A DNA stretch of 64,000 nt from Myxococcota bacterium (GCA_018821305.1 JAHJMN010000021.1:17451-81450); one strand, 5' to 3'. Positions 3,665 through 53,481 are shown, counted from the first letter of the stretch. Translations and numbers: made by a program. The notes: generated by a model not told the origin, from the letters alone.

Positions 3665-4015
3665 ATGTTCAGAGAGCACCTGAAAAAGCTCGTTGAAAAT
3701 GTTGAAGGTGCAAAAGCCGCGTTGCTCATGGAGTTTGATGGAATACAAGTGGACAGTTACACTTCCGGAGATATGGATATCATTACTCTGGGGACAGAGT
3801 TTTCTCAACTCATGACTCATGTTAAAAGAACTGCTTCAATACTTGAAGTTGGTGGTCTTGAAGAAATGATGGTAAAGACTGAAGATCTGATACTTGTATT
3901 CAGAGTCGTAAATATTGATTATTTTCTGGTCGTTGCTATGACCTCCGCCGGAAATTTTGGTAAGGCCCGATTTGTATTACGCCTTACGGTTCCCCGCATG
4001 TTGGAGGAATTTTAA
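3665..4015 (+). CDS. Roadblock/LC7 (MglB-like) domain protein, 116 aa.
   Basis: The size and sequence pattern (…AALLMEFDGIQVDSYTSGD…LEVGGLEEMMVKTEDLILVFRVVNIDYFLVVAMTSAGNFGKARFVL) fit Roadblock/LC7/MglB. No adjacent MglA-like GTPase gene is present. Confidence 0.7.
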   Translation: MFREHLKKLVENVEGAKAALLMEFDGIQVDSYTSGDMDIITLGTEFSQLMTHVKRTASILEVGGLEEMMVKTEDLILVFRVVNIDYFLVVAMTSAGNFGKARFVLRLTVPRMLEEF

Positions 4016-4239
4016 GGATAATGGTGATTTTAAGATCACTTCCTTGATTTTTCAGGAACAAAGCCGATTTTTAATCTACAGCAATAATATTGCTGTTGGT
4101 TCATTAGGGATTGTCCTGAAACACAGTTTTTCAATTTTCGTCGGTTTCAGACGCTGCGGTATGGCAAATTTGATGTATCTTTAATAAAATTAAGATACTT
4201 TCATGATGCCATCAGAGTTTTTTTAAGGAGTTTGGCCAC

Positions 4240-7185
4240 TTGGCTTCTATTAATAAAGATAAGATCGCGGAAACTGCGCAGAAATACCTTAAGAAAAATC
4301 AGTTCAGTAAAGCTATTGCGGAACTGAAAAAAATCGTTGACGCAGATCCTTCTGACATGAGGTATTGGAAAAAAATTGGGGATATCCAAGTTCGTGCTGG
4401 GGACAAAGATGGGGCAGTAGAAACTTATCTCAAAGTCAGCGATGATTTCACTAAGCAAGGATTTTACTCAAAAGCCTTAGCAATTTTGCAACAAATCCAG
4501 TCAATGGATCCAAATATTCCTGAGGTATATCTTAAACTTGCCGACGTATATATCGCTACTGAGTTCACGCCGGATGCTTTATATCAACTGGAAAAGCTCT
4601 GCAGGATTTATGAAAACAAAGGTGATATCGACAACCATTTGATTGCCCTGAATAAAATGGCGGATATCGATCCGTCAAAAGTCATTCACAGGGTCCATCT
4701 TGCAGAAACCTACAGCAAACTCGGACGAAAGCGGGAAGCTGCTCAAAATTTCTCTAAAGTAGCTGATTTTCTCTTCGCAGAAGGAAAAGATAGTGATTTC
4801 ATAAAGGTTGCTGAAAGGCTCCTCTGGCACGATCCCGACGACGCTAAAGTTATAAAACGACTTGCCAATGCGTACCTGAAAGTTGGCAATTCTCAGAAAA
4901 TCATGAAGCGGTTGCTCCAGATCTACCAGAATAATCCGGATGATACAGAAACCCTTCACTTGCTTGCTCGCGTATTTATGGACTCTGATAAAAAAGAGAA
5001 GGCTGTTTTTGTTTATAAGGAATTGGCAAAACTTCACTCTCATATGGGTAAAAATGATGAAGCGGAAGCAATATACAAGCGAATTCTTGAAATAGACGAA
5101 GACGATCCGGATGCCAGAAAATTTATATATGGGGAGCAGGAGATCTCCAATATAGAGGAAATTTCTGGGGTTGAAGAAATTTCCGGAATTGAAGAAATGC
5201 CCGGTGAGGATAGTGATGTCCATGAAATGGGGGACGATCTTGAAGAAATAGAAGAAGACGACCTGATTATGATGGAGGAAAGCAAGGAGAACGAAGATCA
5301 TAAACTCCTTGACGAAAGTGAGGCTTTCCTGCGCTATGGGCTGGTCGAAAAAGCTGTAGATAATCTTAAAATAATATCAAACAAAGATTCCGAAAGGTTT
5401 TTCATTGTTTCCAAAGAGATCGCAGTCAAAAAAGGGCAAAAAAATGAAGCCCTTGAGCTTCTCAAGAGACTTTCAAATTTATCCTTCAATACTGATAGAA
5501 AGAAATCAGGAGATTTTGCATCGGAAGCTCTTGAAATTGAGCCTGGTATCCAGTGGGCGATGGATATTATTAATTCACAAACGGCAAGAAATAAGCCGAT
5601 GACGACCATGGAAATTGCTGCGACGCTTGATCTTGACGAAGCTCTAGACATGCTTGATGAAATTGGCGCACCGGGAGATTCAATGGAGTCAGAATTGCTC
5701 CTTGATGAATCCTGGACGACTCAAGCTCAAGTCCACAGTGATGATGAAATCAAAGAGGCTATTTCTAAAAAAGACAGCAAACCCGTTGAAGACCAGTTTT
5801 CTGATGATGAAGATTTCGAAAAAATGCTTGTAGCGTTGAAAGGTTTGACCACGGGAGAAATTCCTGTGTACGACGACGACTCTCTTGTAGATGATGAGGA
5901 TTCGGATTCACAAAATGATATCGTTCTGGACACTTCCCATTTTGGTGTTGATGATTTCAGCATGGAAATGGATGAGTTGGCCGATTTGCAGGAGGCCAGC
6001 CAGAGTTTCATTCGTATTAGAGAACTTTCTCAGGACGAAATAAGGCTGGACAGCATGCATTCACCTCAACCTCAGATAGAGGTTGAAGAATCAAGTCTTA
6101 CGGCATCAGCTATACCGGAAATTGATGACAACGAAGCATTTGATGATTTCAATTTTGGTGTTTTCGAAGAACCTTCCGGAAAAATTGAAGCACCTGCTGC
6201 TACCAGTGAAAAAGCTCCTGGAGAATTCGGGTTTGAACCAACTCTGGACAGCTATGAAAAACTTATGAATTTCTCCGAAAGGGTAAAGAGTGAACTTTCG
6301 GGATTCGAACATAATGAAGATACGGGAAGTGAAAAGGAAGCCCCTTCTAAAGCGATTCTTACTCCCGAACCTGTACCACTTTCAGACGAGGCTCTTGAGG
6401 CACTTAATGAGATTGATTTTTTTATAGAAACGGATCTCATTGATGATGCACTTGCCGCAGCACAGGAGCTTTTCGCATCCAATCCGCATCCCGATGTAAA
6501 AGCTAAACTAAAACAAGTACTTGAACTTATCGGGGCGGACGATGAAGAAGAGCATACCCCGGTTGTTGCTATTCCGAATATTCCGGAAGCAATGCCCGGC
6601 AGAACATCAAATGCTGAACCTGATATTAGTGAATTTGAGCCTGACATTGAACTGAACCTTGGGGAGCTTTCTTCAGATGAAAATCTTGATTTGAATCTTG
6701 ATTTGAATCTTGATTTCAATGAAGAAGAAGTGACAGCCATTCAGGGTTTGGATCTTCTCAAGTCTGGGATACCTGAGAATGCATCTCGTGTTGAGGAGAG
6801 TGTTAGAATCGAAACCGGCTCTGCAATTGGAGACGCAAATACTCACTTTGACTTAGGTCTTGCTTATAAAGAAATGGGTCTGACAAATCAAGCGATAGAA
6901 GAGTTTAAGCATGCCATGGAATCCCCCGGGGCAAAAATCAAATCCATGATCATGATCTCCAAGTGTCATCTTGAACTTGGAGAAAAAATGAAAGCTTCCA
7001 ATGAACTGAAAGCTGCTCTCCACAGTGATTCGATAAATCCTGATGAAGAGTTGGATATTTATTTCGAATTGGGTAAAATCTACCTCGAGATGAACGACAA
7101 GGAAGAGGCTTCCTATTATTTGAAAAAAGTAGTCAGAAAAGACCCTGATTATCGTGGAGTTAATAAACTTCTAACTGAGCTATAA
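4240..7185 (+). CDS. Large TPR-repeat protein (981 aa) with N- and C-terminal TPR blocks and a long acidic, repeat-containing disordered middle. The start codon is TTG.
   Basis: TPR-like helical repeats are visible at both ends. The middle region is highly acidic, with short tandem repeats (EEISxIEEISGVEEISGIEE; NLDLNLDLNLDFN). An AAGGAG RBS lies 9 nt upstream of the TTG at 4240. Confidence 0.75.
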   Translation: MASINKDKIAETAQKYLKKNQFSKAIAELKKIVDADPSDMRYWKKIGDIQVRAGDKDGAVETYLKVSDDFTKQGFYSKALAILQQIQSMDPNIPEVYLKLADVYIATEFTPDALYQLEKLCRIYENKGDIDNHLIALNKMADIDPSKVIHRVHLAETYSKLGRKREAAQNFSKVADFLFAEGKDSDFIKVAERLLWHDPDDAKVIKRLANAYLKVGNSQKIMKRLLQIYQNNPDDTETLHLLARVFMDSDKKEKAVFVYKELAKLHSHMGKNDEAEAIYKRILEIDEDDPDARKFIYGEQEISNIEEISGVEEISGIEEMPGEDSDVHEMGDDLEEIEEDDLIMMEESKENEDHKLLDESEAFLRYGLVEKAVDNLKIISNKDSERFFIVSKEIAVKKGQKNEALELLKRLSNLSFNTDRKKSGDFASEALEIEPGIQWAMDIINSQTARNKPMTTMEIAATLDLDEALDMLDEIGAPGDSMESELLLDESWTTQAQVHSDDEIKEAISKKDSKPVEDQFSDDEDFEKMLVALKGLTTGEIPVYDDDSLVDDEDSDSQNDIVLDTSHFGVDDFSMEMDELADLQEASQSFIRIRELSQDEIRLDSMHSPQPQIEVEESSLTASAIPEIDDNEAFDDFNFGVFEEPSGKIEAPAATSEKAPGEFGFEPTLDSYEKLMNFSERVKSELSGFEHNEDTGSEKEAPSKAILTPEPVPLSDEALEALNEIDFFIETDLIDDALAAAQELFASNPHPDVKAKLKQVLELIGADDEEEHTPVVAIPNIPEAMPGRTSNAEPDISEFEPDIELNLGELSSDENLDLNLDLNLDFNEEEVTAIQGLDLLKSGIPENASRVEESVRIETGSAIGDANTHFDLGLAYKEMGLTNQAIEEFKHAMESPGAKIKSMIMISKCHLELGEKMKASNELKAALHSDSINPDEELDIYFELGKIYLEMNDKEEASYYLKKVVRKDPDYRGVNKLLTEL

Positions 7186-7284: not shown

Positions 7285-8661
7285 ATGGCTGGAGAAACTA
7301 TCCTGGTAATCGATGACAGCCCTACTATTATTAAAGTAGTTGAACTTGTCCTTACAAAAGCCGGTTACAAAATAATCAGCGCATCTGATGGAGTGGAAGG
7401 GATTGAGAAAGCCAGAGAAGAGAAACCTGACATGGTTCTTCTTGACTTTGTTATGCCTAAAATGAATGGATATCAGGTTTGTAAACACTTTTCAGAAAGT
7501 CCTGACCTTAGCTCTATTCCAGTAGTCCTTATGAGCGCAAAAGGCGAGCAAGTTGGTGAGCGATTTGTCAAGGTCATGGGCATTGTTGATTATATTACTA
7601 AACCATTCAGTCCTGAAGCCATTACTGCCGTTGTCTCTCACACTCTATCCAGGGGAGCAGAGATAACTGAGGAACCGGTTATTCCTCAATCTCGTGAAGA
7701 AGTTGCAGAAGAAGCAGATTTTGAAGCAAGAGTCTGGAAACAGGCCCTTGCCAAATTGAGAAATTCCCTTGCAAGGACCATTGGAAGTTCGGTCGCATCT
7801 ATTGACTCAGGCTTCTCAGACGATGAAACACTATTTAATGAAATAAAAAATACTCTCTCGGATCAATTCCTTGAAGGCTGCCTCGGCGAACTCCGGTCTC
7901 ATTCGCCTAAATTAGCTGCCGAATCCGACAGTGGTATGACAGGAGATCTTTCCATAATTCCCGTTTCTGAAATATTTTTCCTCCTTCAGAATCAACGGCA
8001 GACAGGAATTCTTACTGTAAGTAAAAACTCGACAAAGGTGGATATTTATTTTAATGGAGGAAGGATAGATCTTGCCTCCGCTGCAGGTATCAGTGAAGAG
8101 TACCTTCTTGGTCGCTACGTTATAGATCTTGGACTCATGTCAAGAAACGAAATGGATGAATTCCTCAGTATTCAGGAAAACCGAAATCTTCTTGGTCTTC
8201 AACTCGTAAAACAATCAAAACTTACGGAAACCGAAGTAAAACAGGCAATGACTCTTCAAACCAGAGAGCTTTGCTATGAACTTCTCCGATGGAACAACGG
8301 CCGATTCGCATATCGCTTATGCAAGCCTCTTCCAGCAGTTGCTATTGAGGCGTCTCTGGGTTTAAATGTAGACTCTATTCTTATAGAAGGCTTTAGAAAA
8401 GTTGATGAATGGCATGTCATTGAAAGAGAAATAGATGATTTTGACATTGTTCTCCTTCGCAATGATGATGCCATCGTGCAGATTGGAAGACATAAACTTG
8501 AGCAGGATGAACTGACTGTTTTAGAATTAATAAATGGCAGAAATACGATCAGAGATATTATTCGAAAAAGCAGAATGGGCTCTTTTGACGTTACAAAGAT
8601 GCTCTATAGGCTTTTATCCTCTAAACTTGTGAGGAAAAGGGTTTCAGCTGTTGCAACGTGA
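7285..8661 (+). CDS. Response regulator with an N-terminal REC domain and a C-terminal DUF4388 domain.
   Basis: The REC signature is present (ILVIDDSPT…DMVLLDFVMPKMNGYQV…ITKPF). The C-terminal region has the DUF4388-like pattern (DLSIIPVSEIFFLLQNQRQTGILTVSKNSTKVDIYFNGGRI). Confidence 0.8.
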   Translation: MAGETILVIDDSPTIIKVVELVLTKAGYKIISASDGVEGIEKAREEKPDMVLLDFVMPKMNGYQVCKHFSESPDLSSIPVVLMSAKGEQVGERFVKVMGIVDYITKPFSPEAITAVVSHTLSRGAEITEEPVIPQSREEVAEEADFEARVWKQALAKLRNSLARTIGSSVASIDSGFSDDETLFNEIKNTLSDQFLEGCLGELRSHSPKLAAESDSGMTGDLSIIPVSEIFFLLQNQRQTGILTVSKNSTKVDIYFNGGRIDLASAAGISEEYLLGRYVIDLGLMSRNEMDEFLSIQENRNLLGLQLVKQSKLTETEVKQAMTLQTRELCYELLRWNNGRFAYRLCKPLPAVAIEASLGLNVDSILIEGFRKVDEWHVIEREIDDFDIVLLRNDDAIVQIGRHKLEQDELTVLELINGRNTIRDIIRKSRMGSFDVTKMLYRLLSSKLVRKRVSAVAT

Positions 8662-8822
8662 TAAAAATAGCGTATTATCTGTTGCGGTTGTATTGAACCT
8701 TTGTTTTTTTTTAAAATATGCAAACCGGATTCTGGCAATTCGGATTTTGCAAACTTGTTGCGTGTCAAAACGCACATACCGGAGATACATTTTTCTTCCG
8801 GGTTAATTTAAGGATTCGGATC

Positions 8823-9194
8823 ATGGCAACTATTCTAATAGCTGATGATTCACCAACTTCCAGAAAAGCCATCACATCTGTGCTGGAACCTATGGGACAC
8901 GAGATTATTCAGGCATTTGACGGTGCCGAAGCTTGGGATAAAATTCAGTCAATTAAGCCTGACATTGTTATTCTCGATATTCTCATGCCCAAAATTGGAG
9001 GCTTTGAACTATCAAGGCAAATCAAATCAACGGTTTCCCTTTCTCACATTGGAATTATTATCCTTACTTCGTTGAAACAACAAACGAACAAATACTGGGG
9101 GCTCAAGCAGGGAGCTGATTACTATCTCACAAAACCTGCTCATCCTCAGGAACTCAAGTCTTGTATTGAAACTCTCATGGAGAACAACAATTGA
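8823..9194 (+). CDS. CheY-like single-domain response regulator (124 aa from the internal ATG at 8823).
   Basis: MATILIADDSPTSRKAITSVL…DIVILDILMPKIGGFEL…YLTKP has the canonical REC fold residues. The upstream 35 codons of the listed ORF are probably not translated. Confidence 0.8.
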   Translation: MATILIADDSPTSRKAITSVLEPMGHEIIQAFDGAEAWDKIQSIKPDIVILDILMPKIGGFELSRQIKSTVSLSHIGIIILTSLKQQTNKYWGLKQGADYYLTKPAHPQELKSCIETLMENNN

Positions 9195-9628
9195 GCACTT
9201 TTCGGGTAGTAATCTTCCGTATCGGAGATAAATTTGCCGCGGTGGAAGAGAAGTACTCGGAAGAATTCTTTGTCCTTAATCAAATTACCAGAATCCCGGT
9301 ATCTCCAGCATACATGGGAAACGTTGTAAATTGGCAGGGCAGCATTATTCCAGTCATTGATATCGCTCCCTTTTTTGGAGATCCTGTACGCCCGGTTGTT
9401 TCAAAAATGATCGCCCTTGCCATCAACACCACGGGGAAAGAAAGTGTTTTTTCTATCGTCACCGATGGAATAGACACAGTAAGTGAATTGGAAGAATCAG
9501 AAGAGATAAAAAATGATCTTCCATTTTTTGCTTCAAGTCTGTTAAAGTTCAAGGATGAGGAAATTTTTCTTGTTTCACCATTTAAAATAGAAAAGTTTAT
9601 CATAAACCATTTGAAAAAGATAATCTGA
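9191..9628 (+). CDS. CheW-like coupling protein.
   Basis: The 145-aa protein has a CheW-like pattern (FRIGDKFAAVEEKYSEEFFVLNQITRIPVSPAYMGNVVNWQGSIIPVIDIAPFFG). Its start overlaps the CheY stop (ATGA). Confidence 0.7.
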   Translation: MSTFRVVIFRIGDKFAAVEEKYSEEFFVLNQITRIPVSPAYMGNVVNWQGSIIPVIDIAPFFGDPVRPVVSKMIALAINTTGKESVFSIVTDGIDTVSELEESEEIKNDLPFFASSLLKFKDEEIFLVSPFKIEKFIINHLKKII

Positions 9629-9636
9629 GTAATAAA

Positions 9637-11901
9637 ATGTCCGCAAAAAAAAAACTAGCTGACAGAATTTTTCGTTACGGAATCATAATTTTTATAGTCC
9701 CATTGATAGTGATCATAAGCTTGCTTTCAATAGTTTTTGTCAAGCTTCGAATGCTCCACAAGGACTATAATAACATAGTCCATATCCTTCATTCGGACAT
9801 TGACTCCATTGATAAAAGACTGCATAAATACACTGTCAATCTGAATGAAAATCAAAGAAAAATTCAGAGTGTAAATAAAGCCAGAGCACTGCAGACAGTA
9901 AATGAAAAACTTATTTTTTCAACAGCACAACTTGTTGGCTCATTTTTAGATACACAGATTTTAAAAATACCGGTAGACAGAAATCTTCTCGTTAATCTTT
10001 ATTTCGATTCAACGGCCCAGACACGCACGCTTGCAAAAAAGCAATTAACTCTCTCAGTTATGAAACCAGATCCTTCAAAGCCGGTACCTGCTACCAATCC
10101 CGGAAAAATACCCGATTTGAAACTTCCTGCCCGTTCGCCTTCTGACAACAAAGGCGTAAATGATACTGAAGACCTTAAGAAGCGAATCATGCTTCTCCGA
10201 ACCGGAAAAAATCTGGATAGCAAACAGATTAAGACTCTGATGAAGTCCTTTTTAAAAAATGCTAAAGTATTCAATCGAAATAGCGTTTACTTTTTAATTG
10301 ATCATGAAGATCTTCACAAACACAGAATAATCTGGGCATCTCAGCCTGCGTGGACCGATCGTCTTATGGCTGATTTTGAACCTCTTGAACCTCTTCGCGG
10401 GCTTTTAATAAGCACAAATTATATGCGAACAGTTCTGGATTTTCATGATTTTAAGAGTGAACCAGTTCTACTCAAGAATCTGATTTCCGCCGGAGCTACT
10501 GGTACTGAGGCTAAATACTCAATTTCAAAGGACATGTTCTACGGAATGGTACCAGTATTTGGCACCTCTCTCAGTCTGGGGATTCAAACGCCTATGAATG
10601 ACGAATTCGTTCGCACACTTGATAGCATAAGTGACAACATGGGCCTTTTGAGCACTTTCCTGAAATCTGCAAACCTTGATATTAGAAAAGCTGACAGCCA
10701 AACAAGACTGCTTCACCAGCGTTTTGACAGTGAAACTCGCAATTCGAATTCAATGTTCATCTATATTCTTATTTTTGCATTGATTTTCGTTGGTGTAGGC
10801 TTGTTTCTACTTATCCACTCCCTTCAAAAAAGAGTTGTCAAACCTATTATGGAGATGAGAAAAGTCTCATCCCTGATATCCGAAGGAGACTACGGAGCCC
10901 GCTGCAGTGTCGATACGGATGACGAACTTGAAGAGTTATCTGAGTCTATCAATATCATGCTCGACCGCATAGTTTCTTTAATTCAAAGCGAAGAAGACAA
11001 AGTGAATATGCAGGCGGATATAGTTCAACTACTGGATGTTGTTTCACAGGCCAGTGCCGGAGACCTTACAGTACGTGGTTCGGTTAATACTGCAGATTTT
11101 CAAGCAGTTATGGATGCTTTGAACCACATGATGTCGTCCATAGGTAATCTTGTTATAAGGGTTAGGGCAAGTGGAAATGGCGTTGAACACTACTCAAGGT
11201 TGATGCTGGATACGTCCAGGGCAATTCTTGATAAATCCAATAAGCAGACAACGGATCTTGATATTGCAACAAGGAAAATTAAGGCCCTGGGTGATCGAAG
11301 TCAAGAAATTACCCGAATGGTTGAGCAAATCGGCTCAATAGCTATTGAAACAAATACTCTGGCCCTTAATGCCACACTGGAAGCATCCAGAACCGGCGAC
11401 AGAGATACTGGGATATCACATTTGGCAGAGCATGTTAGACAACTTGCTGATGGCTTGAAAAAGACAAAGCAGGACATAGATTCATTTATGGGGTCCATAC
11501 AACTTGCAACAAATCATGCTGTTCATTCAATGGAAGAGGTACTTTCCTTAACAAGAGAGACAACGGGACAGGCAAAACTCTCTTTTGAAAATGCCGAAAG
11601 TACTCACAATGAAGCAAATCAACTGGCAAAAAGCATAAGCATATTTAAAATTAAAACTCAACTGGATCTTGAAAAGGAAAACGAACTTAAAACATCGGTA
11701 AAAAATATAATCACGAATATCAAGCAAGCTCGCAAACTAATTACGTCGATTGAAACTGATGAATTCCAGAGTTTCGGATATCTCTTTGAAAGCTTCGAGA
11801 AGGATATAAGAGAATTCGCCATGATGGTGGCCAAATCAGGTCTGGATTCAGAGCGTGGACCTTCCTCTGATGAAGAAGTTCCAGCCATTATTGAGGAATA
11901 G
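9637..11901 (+). CDS. Methyl-accepting chemotaxis protein-like transducer, PilJ-like, with two TM segments, a periplasmic domain, HAMP and an MCP signalling domain.
   Basis: TM helices lie near residues 15-37 and ~370-392. The MCP signalling core is present (IAIETNTLALNATLEASRTGDRDTGISHLAEHVRQLADG). An A10 homopolymer tract sits at codons 4-7. Confidence 0.75.
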   Translation: MSAKKKLADRIFRYGIIIFIVPLIVIISLLSIVFVKLRMLHKDYNNIVHILHSDIDSIDKRLHKYTVNLNENQRKIQSVNKARALQTVNEKLIFSTAQLVGSFLDTQILKIPVDRNLLVNLYFDSTAQTRTLAKKQLTLSVMKPDPSKPVPATNPGKIPDLKLPARSPSDNKGVNDTEDLKKRIMLLRTGKNLDSKQIKTLMKSFLKNAKVFNRNSVYFLIDHEDLHKHRIIWASQPAWTDRLMADFEPLEPLRGLLISTNYMRTVLDFHDFKSEPVLLKNLISAGATGTEAKYSISKDMFYGMVPVFGTSLSLGIQTPMNDEFVRTLDSISDNMGLLSTFLKSANLDIRKADSQTRLLHQRFDSETRNSNSMFIYILIFALIFVGVGLFLLIHSLQKRVVKPIMEMRKVSSLISEGDYGARCSVDTDDELEELSESINIMLDRIVSLIQSEEDKVNMQADIVQLLDVVSQASAGDLTVRGSVNTADFQAVMDALNHMMSSIGNLVIRVRASGNGVEHYSRLMLDTSRAILDKSNKQTTDLDIATRKIKALGDRSQEITRMVEQIGSIAIETNTLALNATLEASRTGDRDTGISHLAEHVRQLADGLKKTKQDIDSFMGSIQLATNHAVHSMEEVLSLTRETTGQAKLSFENAESTHNEANQLAKSISIFKIKTQLDLEKENELKTSVKNIITNIKQARKLITSIETDEFQSFGYLFESFEKDIREFAMMVAKSGLDSERGPSSDEEVPAIIEE

Positions 11902-11905
11902 CCTG

Positions 11906-14900
11906 ATGTCTGAAAAGGTTATTTCCGAACTGGCTCAATGGCTTAAAAGGGTTGAAGATCATCCATCTTCCCTTATCAGGAATATTACCTCTACATCTCC
12001 TATCCAGAAGTACATTTCTGAAATTGAAGAAACATGCTCTTTTCCTGAAAGATTAAGAGATGAGTCCATTCTTTCTGAAACCGGTGAAGATGATATAAGC
12101 AGTTTTTACGATGAAGACATGCTCAAATCACTGCTTGAAGTTTTCCAGGCTGAAGCATATGAACACATAGAATCTCTTGCAGAACAACTGGATGCATGGC
12201 CCCCAGGTATATTTGATATCTATCGGACATTCCACACGATTAAGGGCGCCGCAGCAACGGTAGGACTTACTAAAATAAGTCGTGCATCCAAATTGCTGGA
12301 AGATGTTTTTCATAGTTTTGCTGATACATCAACCGTTCCGGAAGATACAATATTCTTTCTTCTATGCGCTGCGTCATGCACACTTTCCCTTATGGTTACA
12401 GATGGCTCAGATCTTTTGCCTGAAGTTTCAGGAATCATCAAATTCGCATGCAGCGATCCCCAAACCCTTTCAGGTAAACCAGTTTCAACAGACGAAAAAA
12501 AAAACCGGGAAAAAAAACAAATTGAATTAAGTAGAAATATTAGCCAGCCTGAGTCACTGAATAGTCAAGAATTACCGCCTGATGAAGATACCTCAACATC
12601 CTTAAAAGAATGTGTGGAACTGGATGAGATGACGCTTATCCTTATGGAAGTGTTTTCTCAGGAAGCTGAGGAACATCTTTCGCGTTTTGACTCCCTCGTG
12701 GAAGAGCTACAAAATGGCAATGACGTATTTCACGAGCTTTTTCGAGTAACTCATACACTCAAAGGAGCTGCGGCTACCGTGGGAGTAAACCGTGTCAGTA
12801 CCGCGGCACACAAGTTAGAAGATTTCTTTGAAAAAATAAGCAAGTCTGGAGCTTCATTATCCAAAAATGATATAAATTTGATTTTTCACATGAGCGAACT
12901 TCTAAGGCGCTCCATTGAGCCATGTGATGAAGATGTACTTTCTGAACTTGATAGGACAATTGCCTTAATCGGTAAAAATAATGGGACACGGGGAGAAAAA
13001 GAGAACCTGAATCCGGATTCTACCGAAAGCCACGGTATTTCAACCGCTGTTTCCTCGGAAGATACCGGCAAAAGCAATCTGAATCCGTATTCTACCGAAA
13101 TTAATGAAACTGTTCCAGGACTCACAAAACCCCGTGGCCGTCAAACCACAACGGGAAAAGGAGAAGCAAGCTCCTCAATACTTCGCATCAGGGTTGATGA
13201 TATAGATAAATTAATCAATTCTTCTGAGGAGTTAGTTCATGTAAGGACTCAGATCGAAAAAAGCCGTGATGACTTCAACAGTATTACTGGAGACCTGTTA
13301 CTCAGCCATCACACCCTGAGACATTTTCTAATGGAAGACCGCAACCGAATGAATGAAGCGGAGAGATTGGAGCGGCTCTCAGAACTTGAAGTAGAAATTG
13401 CTGAACTTATCTACAATCTTGAGCATAGTTCGATCAATCTTACCAGGGAATGTGTAAGCCTTCAAAACCTTGCAAGAATTATTCAGGAGCGACTCATAAC
13501 CCTTCGCATTACAAACTTTGAGATACTTTTTATTAAGTTGAAGCAGTCTATTCGAGAAAACGCTTTCAGTACATTTAAAAACATCAACATTATATTGGAA
13601 GGGCAAAATGTAGAAGTAGATAAAGGAGTAGTTGATTCCCTGTCTTCGCCTCTCCTCCAGATAGCACGAAATGCTGTTGCCCATGGGATAGAAGGGCCTC
13701 AGGAGCGGCTTATAGAAGGAAAACCACCTGATGGCACCATCAGGATTTCCGCCGTTCAGGAGGGATACTTTGCCAAAATAACATTCGAGGATGACGGACG
13801 CGGAATTGATTTTGAACAGGTAAAATCTATTTTAGCAAAGAAGAAGTTCATTTCCACAGAGGGCGAACTTAAAAAACTTACTAAAAACGATCTTTATGAG
13901 GCAATCTTTCTGCAAGGATTTACCACCAAGGAAACCGCTGATTCTCTTTCAGGTCGTGGCGTTGGATTGGATCTGGTGAGAGAAAAAATAAGGAAACTTG
14001 GAGGTGATATTTCTGTAGAATCTATTACCGGAGCGGGTACAAAGTTTATCATCAGGGTCCCTCTTACAACATTCGTATCCAAAGCGCTCCTCTTTACAAT
14101 TGGTAATGAAGTATATGGAGTTCCATCAACTTATTGCATCGAGGTAATGGAGCATTCCTCCAGAAAACCTATAATGCCAGGAGCGAGACTTATCTGGAAA
14201 TCTGAATCTATTCCAGTAGTTCCACTTCATTATTATTTTGGGATTGATCGAGCTCCTATTGCTCGAACCCCCTACTCCATCATAGTATTGCAGCACGGGG
14301 AACATCATTTTGCAATCGCAGCTGATGCAACCATAGGCATTAAAGACGTTACTGTAAAGCCACTTGGAAAAATACTTGGGTCAATAAATTACTTCAACGG
14401 CGCAGTTATTTCTGGAGCGGGCACAATACAGATGATCCTTTCGGTTCCATTTCTGGCCTCACTTGCAAGACCTACAATTGGATTCCATAAGGGTAAAGAT
14501 ATTCAGAAGCACATAAGCGCTCCAAGAATTCTGGTTTGTGACGATTCAAAAAGCGTCAGGGAAGCAGCCGCCCGAATAATAGCTGGCGCAGGTTATGAAG
14601 TTACAAAAGTTCAGGATGGTTGGGAAGCGTGGAATATACTCCACAATGAATTATTCAATCTTGTTCTAACGGATCTTGAAATGCCAAGAATGACTGGTTG
14701 GGAACTGATTTCCGAAATTAAAAGGGATGTATTGCTCCAGAATATTCCAGTCGTAGTTTTATCGTCAAGAACCGGAGAAACATCCCGTGACCGAGCCATG
14801 GACGCGGGGGCTAATTATTTTGTAAGTAAACCCATTAAGCCACTTATTTTACTGAGAGTATTGGAGCAATTCATTCCATTGAACGAGTCAACCATGAGTA

Positions 14901-15496
14901 ATCGAATAGTTCTTTTTGCCACACAAAACCGCGGGAAGATCCTTGAACTTAGTTCTCTAATGCTGGATCTTAACCTTGAACTCTGGGGTATGGAACATTT
15001 CCCTGATCTTGAAGAAGTTGTTGAGGATGGAGCCTCTTTTGAGGAAAACGCTATAAAAAAGGCAAGGACTCGCTGTATCCAGACCGGACTACCTTGTATA
15101 GCTGATGACAGCGGTCTTGAAGTGAACGCTCTTGATGGAGCGCCTGGAATACTCAGTGCAAGATACGCTGGCGAAGAGGCAACCGATCAGGAGCGAATCA
15201 ACTTCCTCCTGAATAACATGAAGGATAAACGGGAGCGCACTGCGCAATTTGTAAGCGTTATTGCTTTTATAAAAAGCCCTTCTTCAGAACCAATCGTCGT
15301 AAAAGGTGTATGTAAAGGCTCCATTGGATACGAACCAATTGGAAGCCACGGTTTCGGATACGATCCTGTGTTTATTCTTCCTGATGGAAAAACAATGGCT
15401 GAACTCACTATGGAAGAAAAGAATGAAATCAGTCACAGAGCAAAGGCTTTCAAAAAATTACTTCCGTATCTTGAAGAGTTTTCAAATATCCAATAG
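11906..15496 (+). CDS. ChpA-like hybrid chemosensory kinase (2x Hpt, HATPase_c, CheW, REC) continuing in frame into an RdgB/Ham1 nucleoside-triphosphate pyrophosphatase domain. The likely start is the ATG at 11906; the listed ORF begins at 11855.
   Basis: Two Hpt motifs are present (HTIKGAAATVGL, HTLKGAAATVGV). The HATPase G-boxes are present (GRGVGLDLV…GGDISVESITGAGTKFIIRVPL). A CheW-like domain follows (LLFTIGNEVYGVPSTYCIEVME), then a REC domain (ILVCDDSKSVRE…LVLTDLEMPRMTGWEL…FVSKP). After that, MSNRIVLFATQNRGKILEL…FEENAIKKAR…IADDSGLEVNALDGAPGILSARYAG…GFGYDPVF matches RdgB/Ham1. A GAGGAA RBS lies before 11906. Confidence 0.8.
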   Translation: MSEKVISELAQWLKRVEDHPSSLIRNITSTSPIQKYISEIEETCSFPERLRDESILSETGEDDISSFYDEDMLKSLLEVFQAEAYEHIESLAEQLDAWPPGIFDIYRTFHTIKGAAATVGLTKISRASKLLEDVFHSFADTSTVPEDTIFFLLCAASCTLSLMVTDGSDLLPEVSGIIKFACSDPQTLSGKPVSTDEKKNREKKQIELSRNISQPESLNSQELPPDEDTSTSLKECVELDEMTLILMEVFSQEAEEHLSRFDSLVEELQNGNDVFHELFRVTHTLKGAAATVGVNRVSTAAHKLEDFFEKISKSGASLSKNDINLIFHMSELLRRSIEPCDEDVLSELDRTIALIGKNNGTRGEKENLNPDSTESHGISTAVSSEDTGKSNLNPYSTEINETVPGLTKPRGRQTTTGKGEASSSILRIRVDDIDKLINSSEELVHVRTQIEKSRDDFNSITGDLLLSHHTLRHFLMEDRNRMNEAERLERLSELEVEIAELIYNLEHSSINLTRECVSLQNLARIIQERLITLRITNFEILFIKLKQSIRENAFSTFKNINIILEGQNVEVDKGVVDSLSSPLLQIARNAVAHGIEGPQERLIEGKPPDGTIRISAVQEGYFAKITFEDDGRGIDFEQVKSILAKKKFISTEGELKKLTKNDLYEAIFLQGFTTKETADSLSGRGVGLDLVREKIRKLGGDISVESITGAGTKFIIRVPLTTFVSKALLFTIGNEVYGVPSTYCIEVMEHSSRKPIMPGARLIWKSESIPVVPLHYYFGIDRAPIARTPYSIIVLQHGEHHFAIAADATIGIKDVTVKPLGKILGSINYFNGAVISGAGTIQMILSVPFLASLARPTIGFHKGKDIQKHISAPRILVCDDSKSVREAAARIIAGAGYEVTKVQDGWEAWNILHNELFNLVLTDLEMPRMTGWELISEIKRDVLLQNIPVVVLSSRTGETSRDRAMDAGANYFVSKPIKPLILLRVLEQFIPLNESTMSNRIVLFATQNRGKILELSSLMLDLNLELWGMEHFPDLEEVVEDGASFEENAIKKARTRCIQTGLPCIADDSGLEVNALDGAPGILSARYAGEEATDQERINFLLNNMKDKRERTAQFVSVIAFIKSPSSEPIVVKGVCKGSIGYEPIGSHGFGYDPVFILPDGKTMAELTMEEKNEISHRAKAFKKLLPYLEEFSNIQ
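14894..15496 (+). CDS. rdgB: RdgB/Ham1-family dITP/XTP pyrophosphatase module (200 aa). It could alternatively initiate at the ATG at 14894.
   Basis: Conserved Ham1 motifs are present (ATQNRGK, ENAIKKA, ADDSGLEV, GAPGILSARYAG, GFGYDP). It is in frame with the upstream kinase, with no stop and only a weak RBS (GAG). Confidence 0.7.
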   Translation: MSNRIVLFATQNRGKILELSSLMLDLNLELWGMEHFPDLEEVVEDGASFEENAIKKARTRCIQTGLPCIADDSGLEVNALDGAPGILSARYAGEEATDQERINFLLNNMKDKRERTAQFVSVIAFIKSPSSEPIVVKGVCKGSIGYEPIGSHGFGYDPVFILPDGKTMAELTMEEKNEISHRAKAFKKLLPYLEEFSNIQ

Positions 15497-16264: not shown

Positions 16265-18289
16265 TCAGATAAGAACGTCTTCTTTATGTTTTACAGGTAT
16301 TATTTTTGAAACAGCACCGGATGCAATCTTTGTAGCATCATCAAACCCATCAATAATAAAAGTCTGGAGCCCCTCCGCTCCGTAGTTGATACCCTTACTG
16401 ATAACCTCTTGAGCTACGGCAACCCCGTATTCTGCAAGTCCTTGCAGGCTGATTTCTTCTTTGATCAAACCCTGACGATTTTCGGATACAATTTGCACGA
16501 AATTGCCGACAGCCCTGAGCATAGCAGGGACTACAACTGGTTGAACAATTCTAAGGCCGTGTTTGGCAAACCCCATAGGATTTTCTTTATCTATTTCACG
16601 TCGATATTGCTTGAAATGATCTTTATTATCAACAAACTTAATTCGGAACTGATGATTTCCTTCATCATCCTCATAGAGAATAATCAGGAGATTTTCCGTC
16701 ATATAACCCCATATTCCAAGAATAAATATATTTATTCCAGCTTCATCAGGCCTTAAATCAGGTATGAAATCAGTATCCAGAAAGAATCTCAATACCAGAA
16801 CGAAAAAAACAACAAGTTTTTCGGCAAGTTCAGGATAGCGTCTAAGATAAAAACTGTATTCAGTCTTTGCCAGATCCTCAAGACTGAACTGGTCAATCTT
16901 GCGGCTTCGAGGTGGAAGAAAATCCGCACGCTCCTGAAATGTACAAAAAGTTGTTTTAGGCGAAATCCAACTAACTTTACCCTGCTTGTCCACAATGCCT
17001 TGTCTCAGGTCATACTCAAGGAGGAAACCAAGGAGCTTTGAGATGAATTTTCTCTTATTAACTGGCAATAATTTATCGTTAACTTCGAAGAGAACTCCGG
17101 ATTTTTCAAGGTGCTGAATAATCTGCGTATTCCTTCTCGATGGTAACTTTACTCCAGAAAAGAAAAGTGCGGCATGTTGAACAAACCGAAGAGCCAGAGA
17201 GACCATTGCAGGGTTTACGTAGCCCATGGTATCGTCAAGTTTATAAAGAGGATATGAATGGTGATAACTAAATGTCTCCCTTAAGATTTCCTTAACGTAT
17301 TCCTGTTTAAATAAGTGTTTTTCTTTAGCATTCATCCTCGAGTAGAAAACTTCTGCTGCTCTATCAAGAAAAGCATTGTTCTCCTGTCTATTTTCCTGGA
17401 TCTGCTCTGCCGTCAATGTGGGCGAATAAGTATAAAACGTCTGTTCCGGGAGAAGAAAGTTCTCATTTCCATACTTCTTGAAGCAATCTTGAATTATTTC
17501 ACGGGCTTCATCCCATTTTAACTTGGGATGCCGAGCTCCACTCAACCATCTGATGGCATCCCTGACACCCACGGTTATAGGAGCATTGAAAAAATTCCTC
17601 AGTATTTCAGTAGTCTGTCTGTCCATTGGGTTATCGCGAACACTGTTGCAGAACTGCCTGAAATCATCAATGTTATTAATTTTATTCTCAGTGTACCTGT
17701 CCTGTTCCATAATCCTGAAAAACGTCCAACTATCATCTTTATCTATGGAATAAAATAGAAATTCACCATTTTCGCTTCCTTCTGGAAATTCATTTAGTTC
17801 ACCCGACAGAAGCTTTCTGATAATATCAGCCAAATGCGGGAAAAATAAGTCATTACCGTTACCGCGATAAAAATATGGAATTTCGCGGGCGGCTTCTGTG
17901 CTGTCCATTACAGTTTTACGCCAGGTGGGGAACAGGCTGTAGCCAATATGTCCAAATATCTCTGAAACAGTGCTTCTGGGGATCTCAACAGGGGAAGCAC
18001 TCCCAAGACGCATAGTAAAATTATCAGTTCTTCCAACTTTCATTAAAAACCGGGAACCGAAATACCGGGAGAAGTTCCTGATTGAATTATATAATGTGCT
18101 ATCAGGCGGGCTCCCTGTATATTTTTCAACAGTTGAAATAAGGGTATCTTGCAATCTATCCGAATCCAGAGCAAATATCTGCGTGTGACTACCCGGATCC
18201 TTTCCCGGTGACAGGGAATATACTGCCTTAAAAATATTGGAAATTATTGTACTGGAGGAAAGCTCTTTGTAGGGATTTGATGGCATCAT
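16265..18289 (-). CDS. Hypothetical protein, 674 aa, with no domain I can recognise.
   Basis: The ORF is long and uninterrupted, with typical codon usage. No signal peptide, TM segment or catalytic motif is evident. Confidence 0.55.
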   Translation of the reverse strand: MMPSNPYKELSSSTIISNIFKAVYSLSPGKDPGSHTQIFALDSDRLQDTLISTVEKYTGSPPDSTLYNSIRNFSRYFGSRFLMKVGRTDNFTMRLGSASPVEIPRSTVSEIFGHIGYSLFPTWRKTVMDSTEAAREIPYFYRGNGNDLFFPHLADIIRKLLSGELNEFPEGSENGEFLFYSIDKDDSWTFFRIMEQDRYTENKINNIDDFRQFCNSVRDNPMDRQTTEILRNFFNAPITVGVRDAIRWLSGARHPKLKWDEAREIIQDCFKKYGNENFLLPEQTFYTYSPTLTAEQIQENRQENNAFLDRAAEVFYSRMNAKEKHLFKQEYVKEILRETFSYHHSYPLYKLDDTMGYVNPAMVSLALRFVQHAALFFSGVKLPSRRNTQIIQHLEKSGVLFEVNDKLLPVNKRKFISKLLGFLLEYDLRQGIVDKQGKVSWISPKTTFCTFQERADFLPPRSRKIDQFSLEDLAKTEYSFYLRRYPELAEKLVVFFVLVLRFFLDTDFIPDLRPDEAGINIFILGIWGYMTENLLIILYEDDEGNHQFRIKFVDNKDHFKQYRREIDKENPMGFAKHGLRIVQPVVVPAMLRAVGNFVQIVSENRQGLIKEEISLQGLAEYGVAVAQEVISKGINYGAEGLQTFIIDGFDDATKIASGAVSKIIPVKHKEDVLI

Positions 18290-18492
18290 TGTTCTCCTGT
18301 ATCAATATTCTCCATGATGACTCAAAAGTCAACATGAAGCATTGCCGGGAATCCACAGTTTTTATATTCGGGCAAACTTTGTTTATTTTTTGTAAATTCT
18401 ATACTGCATTGACAATTTTTACCTTTGGAAGTAGTTTTTACACCTCATCCGGCGCAGTTATCATTTTTCTGCCGGACATTTTCGGAGTAATT

Positions 18493-19980
18493 ATGATACG
18501 ACAAGGGAAAGCTCCTGTTTTAACACCACCGGGTTTGCAGTACCTTGTTATATTCTTTACATGGGCTATATTTTTTGAAGTTGCAATTAGAAAACTTTTA
18601 CTATACTTCAATCAGCCGTCCCATGAATTAGCTGAAATCAGTCGAAATTTTGCCTTTTTCTCCCCTTTTGCGACTTTTTCTATTTACCAGACTCAGATCA
18701 TGGCTTTTCTCACTACAATTGCCACTGTTTCAATAATTTTGCGAACACGAATAGAAACACCATTCTGGAGAATCGCATTGGGCGTTGTGCTGTTTTTCTC
18801 TTTACCAGTTTTAATCCTTAATGGGTTACTTGTTCCAACACATCATGCGGGAGCATCTCTCTGGTATTACCTGAGTTTTATTTCTTCTCTGATCTTAACA
18901 ACAGTTACATTCTGGCTATTCAATACAGGTTCTCTTGATTTTCGTCGACAGATAGCCTGGATAGCGTTCATTCTCCCTGCTTTACTGATTATTCTCAGCA
19001 AAACATATATTTATAATGCCGGTCCAGGCAGCAAAACAGGATATCAACTTTTTCAAGCAGGTACATATATATTTATTTATCAGGCGATCTTATGGCCTTT
19101 TTTGCTATTGAGAGACATCAGAATTAATCCATGGACCCTGCTTATTTCATTTCTTGGTTCTTTCATTATTGCGATCTGGTTTAGATTTGATCATTCTGCG
19201 GCAGGAGTGTTTTTTTCATTGTTCCGCATTACTATTCCCCTGAGTATTTTTGCCAGATTGATGTTTTTTATTGCCCTCTGGTCCACTTTTTATACTCTGG
19301 GAGAATTATTTTTCAGTTCACGCAATCGCTCTATTATACTGGCTTTCAGTTCGTTGCTCTGGGTTGTATCCGGCTACACTCCATGGGTAGAAGAAGAGAT
19401 CCTTCCCTTTATTGCGGTAGTGTTACTTTTGGCCATTGCAATTGAAAAGCCAGAACTTCCTCCTTCCAAGTCACTTCCATTTCCAGAAGACTCCTGGTGG
19501 AAAGCTAATATTTCTAAAAATGTTGTCATTACCAAGTCTAAATGGTTAATTTTATTTAAAAAATTTACTGTCGAATTTTCCGGACCAAGTGCTCTCCCGG
19601 TAAAACTGATTGTCAAATCAGGCTTCAAAGATCGTATTTCATCCTTCCTTATAATAACGGGAATGCCACCGTCAGGAGATCCTGATTGGATTGCCACGAA
19701 CAACGAACTTGTTCCCGTTTCGAGACATTTATTTTCTGCACTACCCAAAGTAGTTTCCTTTGGGAAAGAAAACTATATGATTTGGGACAGGAACTTCTTC
19801 ACAGATGAAATTTTAACGAAAGATTTCAAAAAGTTTCTCTCAGATAATCTTACAGGTGAAGTAAGGATATGGTGGGGTTCAGGTCTTGTTTATGAGAGTG
19901 TCATCTCCCCTGACTCCCTTGAAAGCCTTCGCTTTATAATAAAAATAGTAGTAAAAGCCGGTAGCAAAGCAGACATGTAA
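18493..19980 (+). CDS. Polytopic integral membrane protein with a ~170-aa C-terminal soluble domain. The likely start is the ATG at 18493.
   Basis: At least 9 hydrophobic helices are followed by a hydrophilic C-terminal domain. A GGAG RBS lies 5 nt upstream of 18493. The listed ORF start at 18247 would overlap the divergent gene start at 18289. Confidence 0.5.
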   Translation: MIRQGKAPVLTPPGLQYLVIFFTWAIFFEVAIRKLLLYFNQPSHELAEISRNFAFFSPFATFSIYQTQIMAFLTTIATVSIILRTRIETPFWRIALGVVLFFSLPVLILNGLLVPTHHAGASLWYYLSFISSLILTTVTFWLFNTGSLDFRRQIAWIAFILPALLIILSKTYIYNAGPGSKTGYQLFQAGTYIFIYQAILWPFLLLRDIRINPWTLLISFLGSFIIAIWFRFDHSAAGVFFSLFRITIPLSIFARLMFFIALWSTFYTLGELFFSSRNRSIILAFSSLLWVVSGYTPWVEEEILPFIAVVLLLAIAIEKPELPPSKSLPFPEDSWWKANISKNVVITKSKWLILFKKFTVEFSGPSALPVKLIVKSGFKDRISSFLIITGMPPSGDPDWIATNNELVPVSRHLFSALPKVVSFGKENYMIWDRNFFTDEILTKDFKKFLSDNLTGEVRIWWGSGLVYESVISPDSLESLRFIIKIVVKAGSKADM

Positions 19981-20102: not shown

Positions 20103-21032
20103 TTATTTCATCTGGGCTATATAGCCCTCATTTCGGAGCATTATAAGGATTTCATAAGTGTCAAGATCGCTGTATGAACTTCTGTCAAGAATGATTTTTA
20201 CACTTCCAATATTATGAGCCAGTTGAAGTACATCCAGTTGCTGAGGACTGAGATTCTTTAATGGCGGAGTCAAGGGAGATGCAAGAGTGAAATATGTTTC
20301 GAGGGAAGGAAGATCCTTTTTAAGCCGATTTATTTCATCAAGAATTCTCATGCCTTCCATTAAAAGGCCTTCAGTAGACTCTTTGATTTCATTAAGAAAT
20401 TCAGCATCGTCGGGAGGAAGCAAATCAAATGTACCGGATACCCATGTAATAATTCTGTAAAATGCCTTTGTAGGGTCAAGGTCAAAATTATTATTGATAG
20501 TACAATAATACACCTTTCCATCGCGAAGGTATAATCGAGCTTCCATATCGGAACTGAAAACAGTCAAAACACCGGACTTGCGGCTCGTCGAAAGTAACTG
20601 CAACAAATCAGGAAGAGGGATTTCATCAATGGAGCCGCTCATATGGCGAGTAATTGACATGGTCGTGCGTTTTGATCCAGGGCCCTCCCCAGTCGTTTCC
20701 GCTTCTTCTGGAGCTTCGACCAGGCTGTCCTCGACTGAAACAAGTTTCAGAACGCTGGTACCAATCAAAACACGATCACCTTCTTTTAACTCAACCGGTT
20801 CCGATGCGACACGTTCACCGTTCACAAATGTCCCATTTGTAGATCCTAAATCAACGATAGTAATACGATTATTAGCTGTGGAGATTTTAGAATGACGCCT
20901 GGAAACCATGTCTTCAACAAGAACCATGTCACCATCAGTAGCGCGACCTACAATAACATCACGGCCCATTTTCAATTTGAACTGACCGCCTTGATACTTT
21001 CCTGAGATAAAACGCAAAGCGTATTCTGTCAT
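20103..21032 (-). CDS. FHA-domain protein with a C-terminal DUF4388 domain.
   Basis: The FHA core is present (GRDVIVGRATDGDMVLVEDMVSRRHSKIS…IVDLGSTNGTFVNGERV). A DUF4388-like segment follows (IPLPDLLQLLSTSRKSGVLTV…ARLYLRDGKVYY). Confidence 0.8.
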   Translation of the reverse strand: MTEYALRFISGKYQGGQFKLKMGRDVIVGRATDGDMVLVEDMVSRRHSKISTANNRITIVDLGSTNGTFVNGERVASEPVELKEGDRVLIGTSVLKLVSVEDSLVEAPEEAETTGEGPGSKRTTMSITRHMSGSIDEIPLPDLLQLLSTSRKSGVLTVFSSDMEARLYLRDGKVYYCTINNNFDLDPTKAFYRIITWVSGTFDLLPPDDAEFLNEIKESTEGLLMEGMRILDEINRLKKDLPSLETYFTLASPLTPPLKNLSPQQLDVLQLAHNIGSVKIILDRSSYSDLDTYEILIMLRNEGYIAQMK

Positions 21033-32119: not shown

Positions 32120-32324
32120 ATTTCCTCCTTCTTCCAATCCTGGAAGCATTTTGTTACCTCCGGAAAGTATCTTTGTTTCCGGATAGATAGTTAGCAGACG
32201 GATCACCGCCATATGAGGAGATATATTTAAATTCTTCAATAGAATCGTCCTGATACGAAATTCAGGACGTATCAAAACAGGTTTCCGGACGATGCAGCCC
32301 CCATATTCAATTCTTTTATTTTAA

Positions 32325-36198: not shown

Positions 36199-36310
36199 TT
36201 ACTGATCCAAGCACGTAGATTATTGTGTTGAATATAACACAGTAACATAATAATCTTGTTGAATGATTTTGCACAGCCCTAATTTCCTCACTCTATTCTT
36301 TTGTAAAGTT

Positions 36311-45257: not shown

Positions 45258-45430
45258 TTTCCTCTCCTGGTTCCGGCTCAGGGTCCGATTTCCCCGGACC
45301 CATTCACCTGACACATTCCAATGACCACTTCCGTGTCGCCTCGAGGAACGCACAATTGTTAAAAGTTGTTGTTAATTATAACTCCATCATAAATTATTAG
45401 ATCACTAATTATTATTATAATTTTTCATTT

Positions 45431-46129: not shown

Positions 46130-46139
46130 GATTGCCTCC

Positions 46140-51140: not shown

Positions 51141-51192
51141 ATTACATTTCTTTCAAGTTTTTTCAGTATCATATAGTTTATATTCAACATTA

Positions 51193-53461: not shown

Positions 53462-53481
53462 ATATTGCTTTCCTTAACATG

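Follow-up and report, generated by a model that had tools for sequence, protein, structure and literature searches.

Can a chemosensory kinase and an enzyme that cleans the nucleotide pool be made as a single protein? This question is raised by one gene within a 64,000-nucleotide stretch of DNA from a Myxococcota bacterium (GCA_018821305.1, JAHJMN010000021.1:17451-81450; hereafter 'the window', whose first letter is position 1). An earlier note, made from the sequence alone, had seen a ChpA-like kinase in this stretch reading straight into a complete RdgB/Ham1 inosine triphosphate pyrophosphatase (ITPase) with no stop codon between the two. From the data assembled here, it is likely that the gene encodes a real and conserved fusion protein whose ITPase is active, as judged from the sequences of this protein and its orthologues.

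The absence of a stop codon between the kinase and the RdgB/Ham1 module is borne out both by the open reading frame (ORF) listing of the window and by translation. An uninterrupted ORF of 1213 amino acids, beginning with GTG, occupies positions 11855 to 15496 of the + strand, and no stop codons occur across the junction, where ...RVLEQFIPLNEST is followed directly by MSNRIVLFATQNRGK.... The length of 1213 codons given in the earlier note stands if the upstream GTG is counted. However, the true start is likely to be the ATG at 11906, which yields a product of 1196 amino acids, because GAGGA lies 8 nucleotides upstream of this codon, the preceding gene for a methyl-accepting chemotaxis protein (MCP) ends at 11901, and the resulting product is identical to a protein already in public collections (P0001). 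This ATG is located 5 nucleotides past the MCP stop codon. The Prokaryotic Genome Annotation Pipeline names the whole 1196-amino-acid protein 'RdgB/HAM1 family non-canonical purine NTP pyrophosphatase', and JGI names its relatives either RdgB/HAM1 pyrophosphatase or ChpA.

A Pfam search agrees with the proposed order of domains. Two Hpt domains are followed by HATPase_c (residues 582-721), CheW (727-851) and Response_reg (875-983, the receiver or REC domain), and the protein ends with Ham1p_like (1002-1187). To determine how widely this arrangement occurs, 5.8 billion proteins were searched, and this yielded 17 protein clusters (P0001-P0017, from NCBI, JGI, ENA and Logan assemblies) that carry the identical five Pfam families in proteins of 1141 to 1221 amino acids, at 100% to 45% identity. 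Below these, at identities of 36% or less, come ChpA-like kinases of the ordinary kind, which lack Ham1. Three NCBI accessions carry the identical protein, as does an independent Logan assembly of SRR2544012, and one 91%-identical relative as well as 15 more distant clusters also read through at the junction. Likewise, scanning a single genome for each GTDB species revealed REC and Ham1 in one frame in 12 species genomes with G+C contents of 39-66%, which are metagenome-assembled genomes (MAGs) named Myxococcota, Polyangia, Kofleriaceae, Haliangium or 'Deltaproteobacteria'. A stop codon at the junction is present in none of the 12, and one locus (L019) is truncated by the end of its contig inside Ham1.

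These occurrences bear on the simplest objection to the fusion, namely that two normally separate genes were joined by faulty sequencing or assembly, or because chpA lost its stop codon only very recently. The short junction and the placement of Met997 exactly at the position where a free RdgB would start are what such an accident might leave behind. However, an error at the junction is ruled out by the repeated recovery of the same protein and by the readthrough in its orthologues, which proceeds without an insertion or deletion at the junction in all 17 clusters and 12 species genomes, and no free RdgB closer than ~53% identity exists among 1.84 billion representatives. Alignment of the junction against orthologous loci, as the earlier note had proposed, gave no instance of a stop codon and ribosome-binding site between the modules in either set. 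The idea, also raised there, that two genes were recently fused or lost the stop between them is contradicted by orthologues that diverge to 45% identity and span the full range of G+C content given above, by a junction free of gaps, and by Ham1 modules that are monophyletic. An artefact or recent accident is thus extremely unlikely.

One orthologous gene, from the MAG HGW-Deltaproteobacteria-22 (L011), is split into ORFs of 655 and 548 amino acids by an in-frame TAA at 5326-5328. This codon lies in the kinase part and adjoins a run of N that marks a scaffold gap, and is most likely an assembly artefact rather than biology. NCBI labels the 547-amino-acid C-terminal piece of this gene RdgB/HAM1.

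When the 17 fused Ham1 modules were compared with the 110 nearest free RdgBs by neighbor-joining, the fused modules formed one clade in 97 of 100 bootstraps. Because they form a single clade, the tree indicates a single old fusion. Among the 1.84 billion representatives, which are clustered at 50% identity, the free RdgBs closest to the module share 45-53% identity with it, and the only proteins that match REC and Ham1 from end to end in this order are the two representatives of the fusion family itself.

We then considered whether the fused RdgB/Ham1 module retains the features expected of an enzyme. Its match to PF01725 extends over profile positions 1-185 of 186 (E = 4.9e-63; 212.8 bits versus a cut-off of 22.5), such that the domain boundaries, for which the earlier note had suggested a hidden Markov model scan, are those of a near full-length Ham1 domain at residues 1002-1187. 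The module also passes TIGR00042, the NCBI equivalog model for RdgB/HAM1 (179.8 bits versus a cut-off of 145.35), and matches the structures of Escherichia coli RdgB (1k7k, 2pyu) with an E value of 6e-46. Identity to E. coli RdgB is ~50% in a pairwise alignment. The 110 free RdgBs have 31 columns with conservation of 95% or more, and every one of these is invariant in the 17 fused modules, including N1008, K1011, E1040, K1052, D1067, D1068, G1070, the FGYDP sequence at 1150-1154, K1172 and S1176-H1177-R1178. The conserved catalytic and substrate-binding motifs, namely the N-x-G-K loop, the Glu, the Lys, DDSG, FGYDP and K...SHR, are all present, and D1068 lines up with the Asp that is changed to Ala in PDB entries 2pyu and 2q16. 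With a mean pairwise identity of 67% among the 17 orthologues, the module is one of the best-conserved parts of the protein. The fused clade also has two invariant surface-type residues of its own, W1027 and R1056, which occur in 0% of the 110 free RdgBs compared. The module does not take the free-standing form of ~200 amino acids in any of the 17 clusters, but is embedded in the long protein each time, and tblastn detected no other Ham1 gene, either in the window or in the loci fetched for comparison.

The kinase half is similarly intact. The features that place it with CheA/ChpA-type kinases are Hpt domains whose His residues (H110 and H283) both lie in HT[IL]KG motifs, the boxes of the CheA P4 domain, a P5 domain, and neighboring genes for CheW, MCP and CheY-like proteins. 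The residues of the kinase boxes (N589, H593, G594, D629, D630, G631, G633, F672, T674, G683, R684, G685 and G687) are invariant, as are D879, D880, the phospho-acceptor D923, S953, F972 and K975 of REC in 17 of 17 orthologues. REC is the best-conserved domain of the protein, with a mean pairwise identity of 77%. No match to PF02895, the P3 dimerization domain, was obtained with Pfam in this protein or its orthologues. Residues ~490 to 848 nevertheless align with P3-P4-P5 of Thermotoga maritima CheA (1b3q, 3ja6; E = 6e-56), and the C-terminal part of the helical block at residues 436-575 aligns to the P3 helices of 1b3q. This block has a mean pairwise identity of 70% and no gap columns among the 17 orthologues. 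Since the near-universal positions of RdgB, the His residues of Hpt, the kinase boxes and the Asp of REC are all invariant, both halves look functional. The orthologue alignment shows purifying selection on both halves, with every residue predicted to serve in the phosphorelay or in nucleotide hydrolysis retained.

The junction itself is unusually constrained. The linker from REC to the first strand of Ham1 is only 6-7 residues long and free of gaps in the 17 orthologues, and residues 436-1196 as a whole contain gaps in only four columns, whereas the inter-domain linkers of the N-terminal region are hypervariable (57 of 92 and 72 of 107 columns with gaps). The consensus in the 17 proteins is P-[LI]-[NDE]-[ED]-x-x-[MVI]-x-x-[RK/Q]-I-x-[LI]-F-A-[TS], and the position of Met997 within it corresponds to the first residue of free RdgBs (M-x-x-[KR]-[IV]-V-...). 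This raises the prospect that the gene has dual products, with the fusion accompanied by a free RdgB of 200 amino acids that is initiated internally (at ATG 14894, or at GTG in high-GC relatives) and that performs the house-cleaning.

Several observations are in keeping with internal initiation. Among the 17 clusters, 6 retain Met at the old start and 9 have Val there, and this Val is encoded by GTG in 8 of 8 high-GC loci for which DNA is available, with GGAGGA or GAGGAG located 6-7 nucleotides upstream within the codons for the Glu-Glu of the linker. Columns of invariant Val that are GTG throughout are rare in these genes (2 of 31, the junction included), which could be taken as a hint of constraint on an internal start. 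However, the eight sequences are related and do not represent eight independent events, motifs resembling a Shine-Dalgarno sequence precede 5-12% of in-frame ATG or GTG codons in the high-GC genes, and at the junction this motif is also dictated by the conserved peptide Glu-Glu-x-Leu-Val. There is no real Shine-Dalgarno sequence before the Met997 position in the low-GC members, including the window, where we confirmed that only a weak GAG precedes the internal ATG. Moreover, the remaining two clusters (P0004 and P0007) carry Ile at this position, which in the locus encoding P0004 (L010) is specified by ATC.

Because Ile occupies the old start in two lineages, internal initiation, although possible in some lineages, does not appear to be a conserved feature. 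Lineages with Ile can make Ham1 only as a fusion, and in these at least the fused form, to judge from the sequences, has to work. The junction GTG together with the motif upstream resembles a relic start codon with its ribosome-binding site. We consider it improbable that a separately initiated RdgB serves as the house-cleaning enzyme of these organisms.

Another reading of the architecture is that Ham1 is the output of the receiver, and that phosphorylation controls the ITPase, for example by setting its dimerization through the alpha4-beta5-alpha5 face of REC. The arrangement is suggestive, as evident by the fact that REC, with its acidic pocket and S953, F972 and K975 intact, is directly N-terminal to Ham1 in the order usual for a receiver and its output, and by the fact that the linker is short and invariant in length in a protein whose other linkers are not. 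The exceptional conservation of REC and the clade-specific W1027 and R1056, which free RdgBs lack, point the same way, as does a separate fusion of Ham1 with REC in another lineage (discussed below). However, AlphaFold gives no confident packing between the domains, and the C-terminal REC domains of ChpA/CheA-type kinases normally serve as phosphate sinks and have no output of their own. The Ham1-REC fusion of the other lineage is rare (two clusters), has the reverse order, and resides in a murI-rph-rdgB housekeeping context, and we know of no physiological reason to gate a house-cleaning enzyme. Phosphorylation control of this kind is therefore a doubtful proposition.

The more specific scheme, in which phosphotransfer from Hpt to D923 would switch a pyrophosphatase for inosine triphosphate (ITP), xanthosine triphosphate (XTP) or another non-canonical purine nucleotide, with Ham1 as a signaling output, we regard as quite unlikely. 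If it were true, a chemosensory pathway would control the local level of deaminated purine nucleotides, or nucleotide damage would feed back on motility signaling. Such a protein would represent a new class of response-regulator output and the first link between a CheA-type array and sanitation of the nucleotide pool.

The module might instead act as a sensor rather than an enzyme, binding ITP, dITP or XTP as a signal that is passed into the kinase or receiver in the manner of KomB from the Kongming anti-phage system, in which it is the HAM1-like subunit. Homology to KomB (8zsg) can be detected (E = 1e-11), and Kongming provides a precedent in which a Ham1-like protein takes part in dITP signaling (PMC13454610). 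On the other hand, the match to RdgB is far stronger, the module passes the RdgB equivalog model, and all conserved catalytic positions are intact. Neither KomA, the deaminase, nor KomC, the SIR2 protein, is encoded nearby, where the neighbors are chemosensory, TPR and unrelated genes, and the operon is a chromosomal one beside rpmH-rnpA-yidC and not a defense island. A sensor role of this type is very unlikely.

The reading that we prefer is a conserved fusion with an active enzyme. A single event would have attached rdgB to the 3′ end of the terminal gene in an operon encoding a PatA-type response regulator, CheY, CheW, an MCP and CheA. The old start of rdgB would persist as Met997 (Val from GTG, or Ile, in relatives), and its former ribosome-binding site is probably now translated as the acidic pair of the linker (Glu-Glu, Asn-Glu or Asp-Asp/Glu). 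RdgB enzymes normally act as homodimers with Mg-dependent activity, and dimerization of the kinase through its P3-like region could bring two C-terminal Ham1 modules close enough to form one. Tethered to the chemosensory array, the protein would hydrolyze ITP, dITP and XTP to the monophosphate and pyrophosphate, and our best estimate is that the module supplies the RdgB house-cleaning of the lineage in a largely constitutive manner.

Three observations weigh against this proposal. First, an AlphaFold2 model of residues 866-1196, comprising REC and Ham1 and built from the 17-sequence alignment, shows two confidently folded domains, with a mean predicted local distance difference test score (pLDDT) of 84.8, but has a predicted template modeling score of 0.58, and pLDDT falls below 50 at linker residues 129-131 of the model, such that no fixed interface between REC and Ham1 is predicted. 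Second, ATG or GTG is kept at the old start in 15 of 17 clusters, which would allow a separately initiated RdgB. Third, an unfused ancestral adjacency of chpA and rdgB is not observed. In the nearest unfused ChpA relatives (32-36% identity), for which an ancestral chpA-rdgB pair was considered and rejected at P0019 and P0020, the gene after the kinase encodes a VanZ-like membrane protein.

The surroundings of the gene are conserved as well (Table 1). All fusion-bearing loci examined share the gene order Roadblock/LC7-like, TPR, REC-PATAN, REC, CheW, MCP and kinase-REC-Ham1, with rpmH-rnpA-yidC on the opposite strand before the Roadblock/LC7-like gene. The fusion is the last gene of this conserved operon, and the genes downstream of it differ between loci. 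The unfused kinases P0019 and P0020 keep the order REC-PATAN, REC, CheW, MCP and kinase. The genes for the Roadblock/LC7 and TPR proteins (3665-7185, + strand) are missing at L005 and L006, the two closest loci that lack the fusion, and these two proteins may be partners specific to the system.

Table 1. Coordinates of the fusion gene, its domains and the genes around it, in window positions.
Feature	Coordinates	Strand	Basis
Coding sequence, 1196 codons + stop, ChpA/CheA-type hybrid histidine kinase fused to RdgB/Ham1	11906..15496	+	continuous ORF, identity to P0001, five Pfam families
Hpt domain 1, ~residues 69-170, His110 in HT[IL]KG[AS]AATVGL	12110..12415	+	Pfam; H110 invariant in 17 orthologues
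Hpt domain 2, ~residues 246-345, His283	12641..12940	+	best Pfam Hpt stretch 246-313; H283 invariant
Helical conserved block before kinase domain, residues 436-575, putative divergent CheA P3-like dimerization region	13211..13630	+	structure alignment, conservation
HATPase_c, CheA P4, residues 582-721	13649..14068	+	Pfam; N, G1, F, G2 boxes invariant
CheW-like, CheA P5, residues 727-851	14084..14458	+	Pfam; alignment to solved CheA structures
Receiver (REC), residues 875-983	14528..14854	+	Pfam; key residues invariant
REC-to-Ham1 junction, residues 991-1000, P-L-N-E-S-T-M-S-N-R, including Met997 at 14894-14896	14876..14905	+	no stop, 0 gap columns in 17 orthologues
Complete RdgB/Ham1 (d)ITP/XTP pyrophosphatase module, residues 1002-1187	14909..15466	+	PF01725, TIGR00042, E. 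coli RdgB match
Roadblock/LC7 (MglB-like) protein, 116 amino acids, first gene of conserved cluster	3665..4015	+	Pfam Robl_LC7 E 1.8e-6; 116-amino-acid gene in same place in orthologous loci
TPR protein, ~1000 amino acids	4240..7185	+	Pfam; in every fusion-bearing locus examined
REC + PATAN (DUF4388/PatA_N) response regulator	7285..8661	+	Pfam; conserved gene order
Single-domain receiver (CheY/PilH-like)	8718..9194	+	Pfam; gene callers start at 8823 (123 amino acids) in L001 and orthologous loci
CheW-like coupling protein	9191..9628	+	Pfam; conserved gene order
MCP (HAMP + MCPsignal), immediately upstream of fusion, same operon	9637..11901	+	Pfam; same position in all orthologous loci examined
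FlgE	43968-45353	-	flagellar cluster
FlgD	45431-46174	-	flagellar cluster
1269-amino-acid ORF, no Pfam match	46140-49949	-	flagellar cluster
MgtE_N-like ORF	49912-50718	-	flagellar cluster
FliI	51193-52518	-	flagellar cluster
FliH	52511-53461	-	flagellar cluster
FliG	53668-54687	-	flagellar cluster

With regard to motility, no type IV pilus genes were found among the window ORFs scanned. A flagellar cluster is present at 43968-54687 on the - strand, ~28 kb downstream of the fusion. Cultured Myxococcota glide, and such a cluster is unusual for a genome labeled Myxococcota. Flagellar assembly genes are also mentioned for Zodletone Myxococcota MAGs (preprint 10.1101/2021.07.06.451402).

Other features of the window were noted in passing. 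YidD and YidC are encoded by a single ORF of 773 amino acids at 96-2417 on the - strand, with PF01809 at residues 4-69 followed by YidC_periplas and 60KD_IMP. The combined product is also called in three orthologous loci (L002, L003 and L007), and thus constitutes a second conserved fusion in the lineage. A protein with FHA and PATAN (DUF4388) domains is encoded at 20103-21032 (- strand), ~5 kb downstream of the fusion, and is the second PATAN protein nearby. Large ORFs without a Pfam match are located at 16265-18289 (-), 18247-19980 (+), 30686-32275 (-) and 35134-37195, with lengths of 529-674 amino acids in addition to 354 and 310 amino acids. The 674-amino-acid ORF is read from the strand opposite to the fusion and is the second gene after it.

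A literature search for Ham1, RdgB, ITPase or PF01725 together with CheA, ChpA, receiver or histidine kinase returned nothing relevant in searchable full text, and no paper joining Ham1/RdgB to a receiver or an output domain, in agreement with the statement in the earlier note that the architecture is unfamiliar from described systems; the architecture itself is real and conserved. The protein is best classed as a CheA-REC hybrid kinase with an undescribed enzymatic C-terminal domain, whose sequences are already in public databases. CheA/ChpA-type kinases and RdgB are both well studied, and it is their covalent combination that is absent from the searchable literature. Labels such as 'RdgB/HAM1 family pyrophosphatase' or 'ChpA' hide the other half of each protein, which calls for caution with automated annotation.

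A fusion with an invariant junction has been kept across a deep clade of uncultured Polyangia-like Myxococcota, and, in the 'Rosetta-stone' sense, hints at a possible connection between cleaning of the nucleotide pool and a phosphorelay of the motility type. Receivers commonly acquire additional domains. A regulatory link would add a new type of output to two-component signaling. If the link is not regulatory, the protein would illustrate how the terminal gene of an operon can absorb a housekeeping enzyme, leaving the former start codon and what was probably its ribosome-binding site as fossils in the linker.

How does this protein compare with systems that are already known? The module resembles RdgB/Ham1/ITPA enzymes such as E. 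coli RdgB over the full length of the domain, through TIGR00042, and at all 31 near-universal residues. Known RdgBs, however, are free proteins of ~200 amino acids, whereas this one forms the C-terminal domain in a kinase of 1196 amino acids and carries W1027 and R1056. Likewise, the kinase resembles CheA-REC kinases of the ChpA, PixL and FrzE type in its Hpt domains, its CheA P4-P5 core with a putative P3-like region before it, and its receiver, and JGI applies the label ChpA to the nearest homologues.

The operon is likewise similar to Pil-Chp and Pix systems in its order of a PATAN-type response regulator, a CheY-like response regulator, CheW, MCP and kinase. In systems of this type (PilG-H-I-J-ChpA of Pseudomonas aeruginosa and PixG-H-I-J-L of cyanobacteria), the order is PATAN-type regulator, CheY, CheW, MCP and CheA-REC. 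Compared with ChpA-type systems, the fusion has the extra C-terminal Ham1, only two Hpt domains and a P3 region without a PF02895 match. Its PATAN regulator has REC before PATAN, its cluster opens with genes for a Roadblock/LC7 protein and a TPR protein of ~1000 amino acids, and CheB and CheR are absent from the cluster.

A more distant parallel is provided by KomB, which shares the Ham1 fold and takes part in signaling by a deaminated purine nucleotide (PMC13454610). The similarity to KomB (E = 1e-11) is much lower than that to RdgB (E = 6e-46), and the fusion has no SIR2 or deaminase partners and does not reside in a defense locus. Additional Ham1 fusions encountered in the searches (P0132, P0154, P0172 and P0320) comprise a tandem Ham1-Ham1 protein (434 amino acids) and fusions of Ham1 with a cytidylyltransferase-like domain (373 amino acids), with DUF2569 (370 amino acids) and with TPR (460 amino acids).

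The Ham1-REC proteins of Gemmatimonadota-like MAGs (P0266 and P0269) also hold a complete Ham1 and a receiver in one polypeptide. They differ in that Ham1 precedes REC, the proteins are only 337-366 amino acids long and lack a kinase, and the searches returned just two clusters of them. Their closest relatives, free RdgBs from Gemmatimonadetes-like MAGs, share 65-70% identity with them, and the gene for P0266 (2424-3437 of locus L020) is located directly after rph and murI. Judging from these sequences, they represent an independent and apparently recent fusion of rdgB with a receiver. Their ordinary murI-rph-rdgB context shows that rdgB can gain a receiver without an obvious signaling setting.

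Finally, response regulators with an enzymatic output, such as PleD (REC-GGDEF), CheB (REC-methylesterase) and REC-PP2C proteins, have the same layout of a receiver, a short linker and an enzyme. Regulation of the enzyme is only putative for the fusion protein, which differs from these regulators in that its receiver-enzyme pair is contained within the kinase polypeptide itself.

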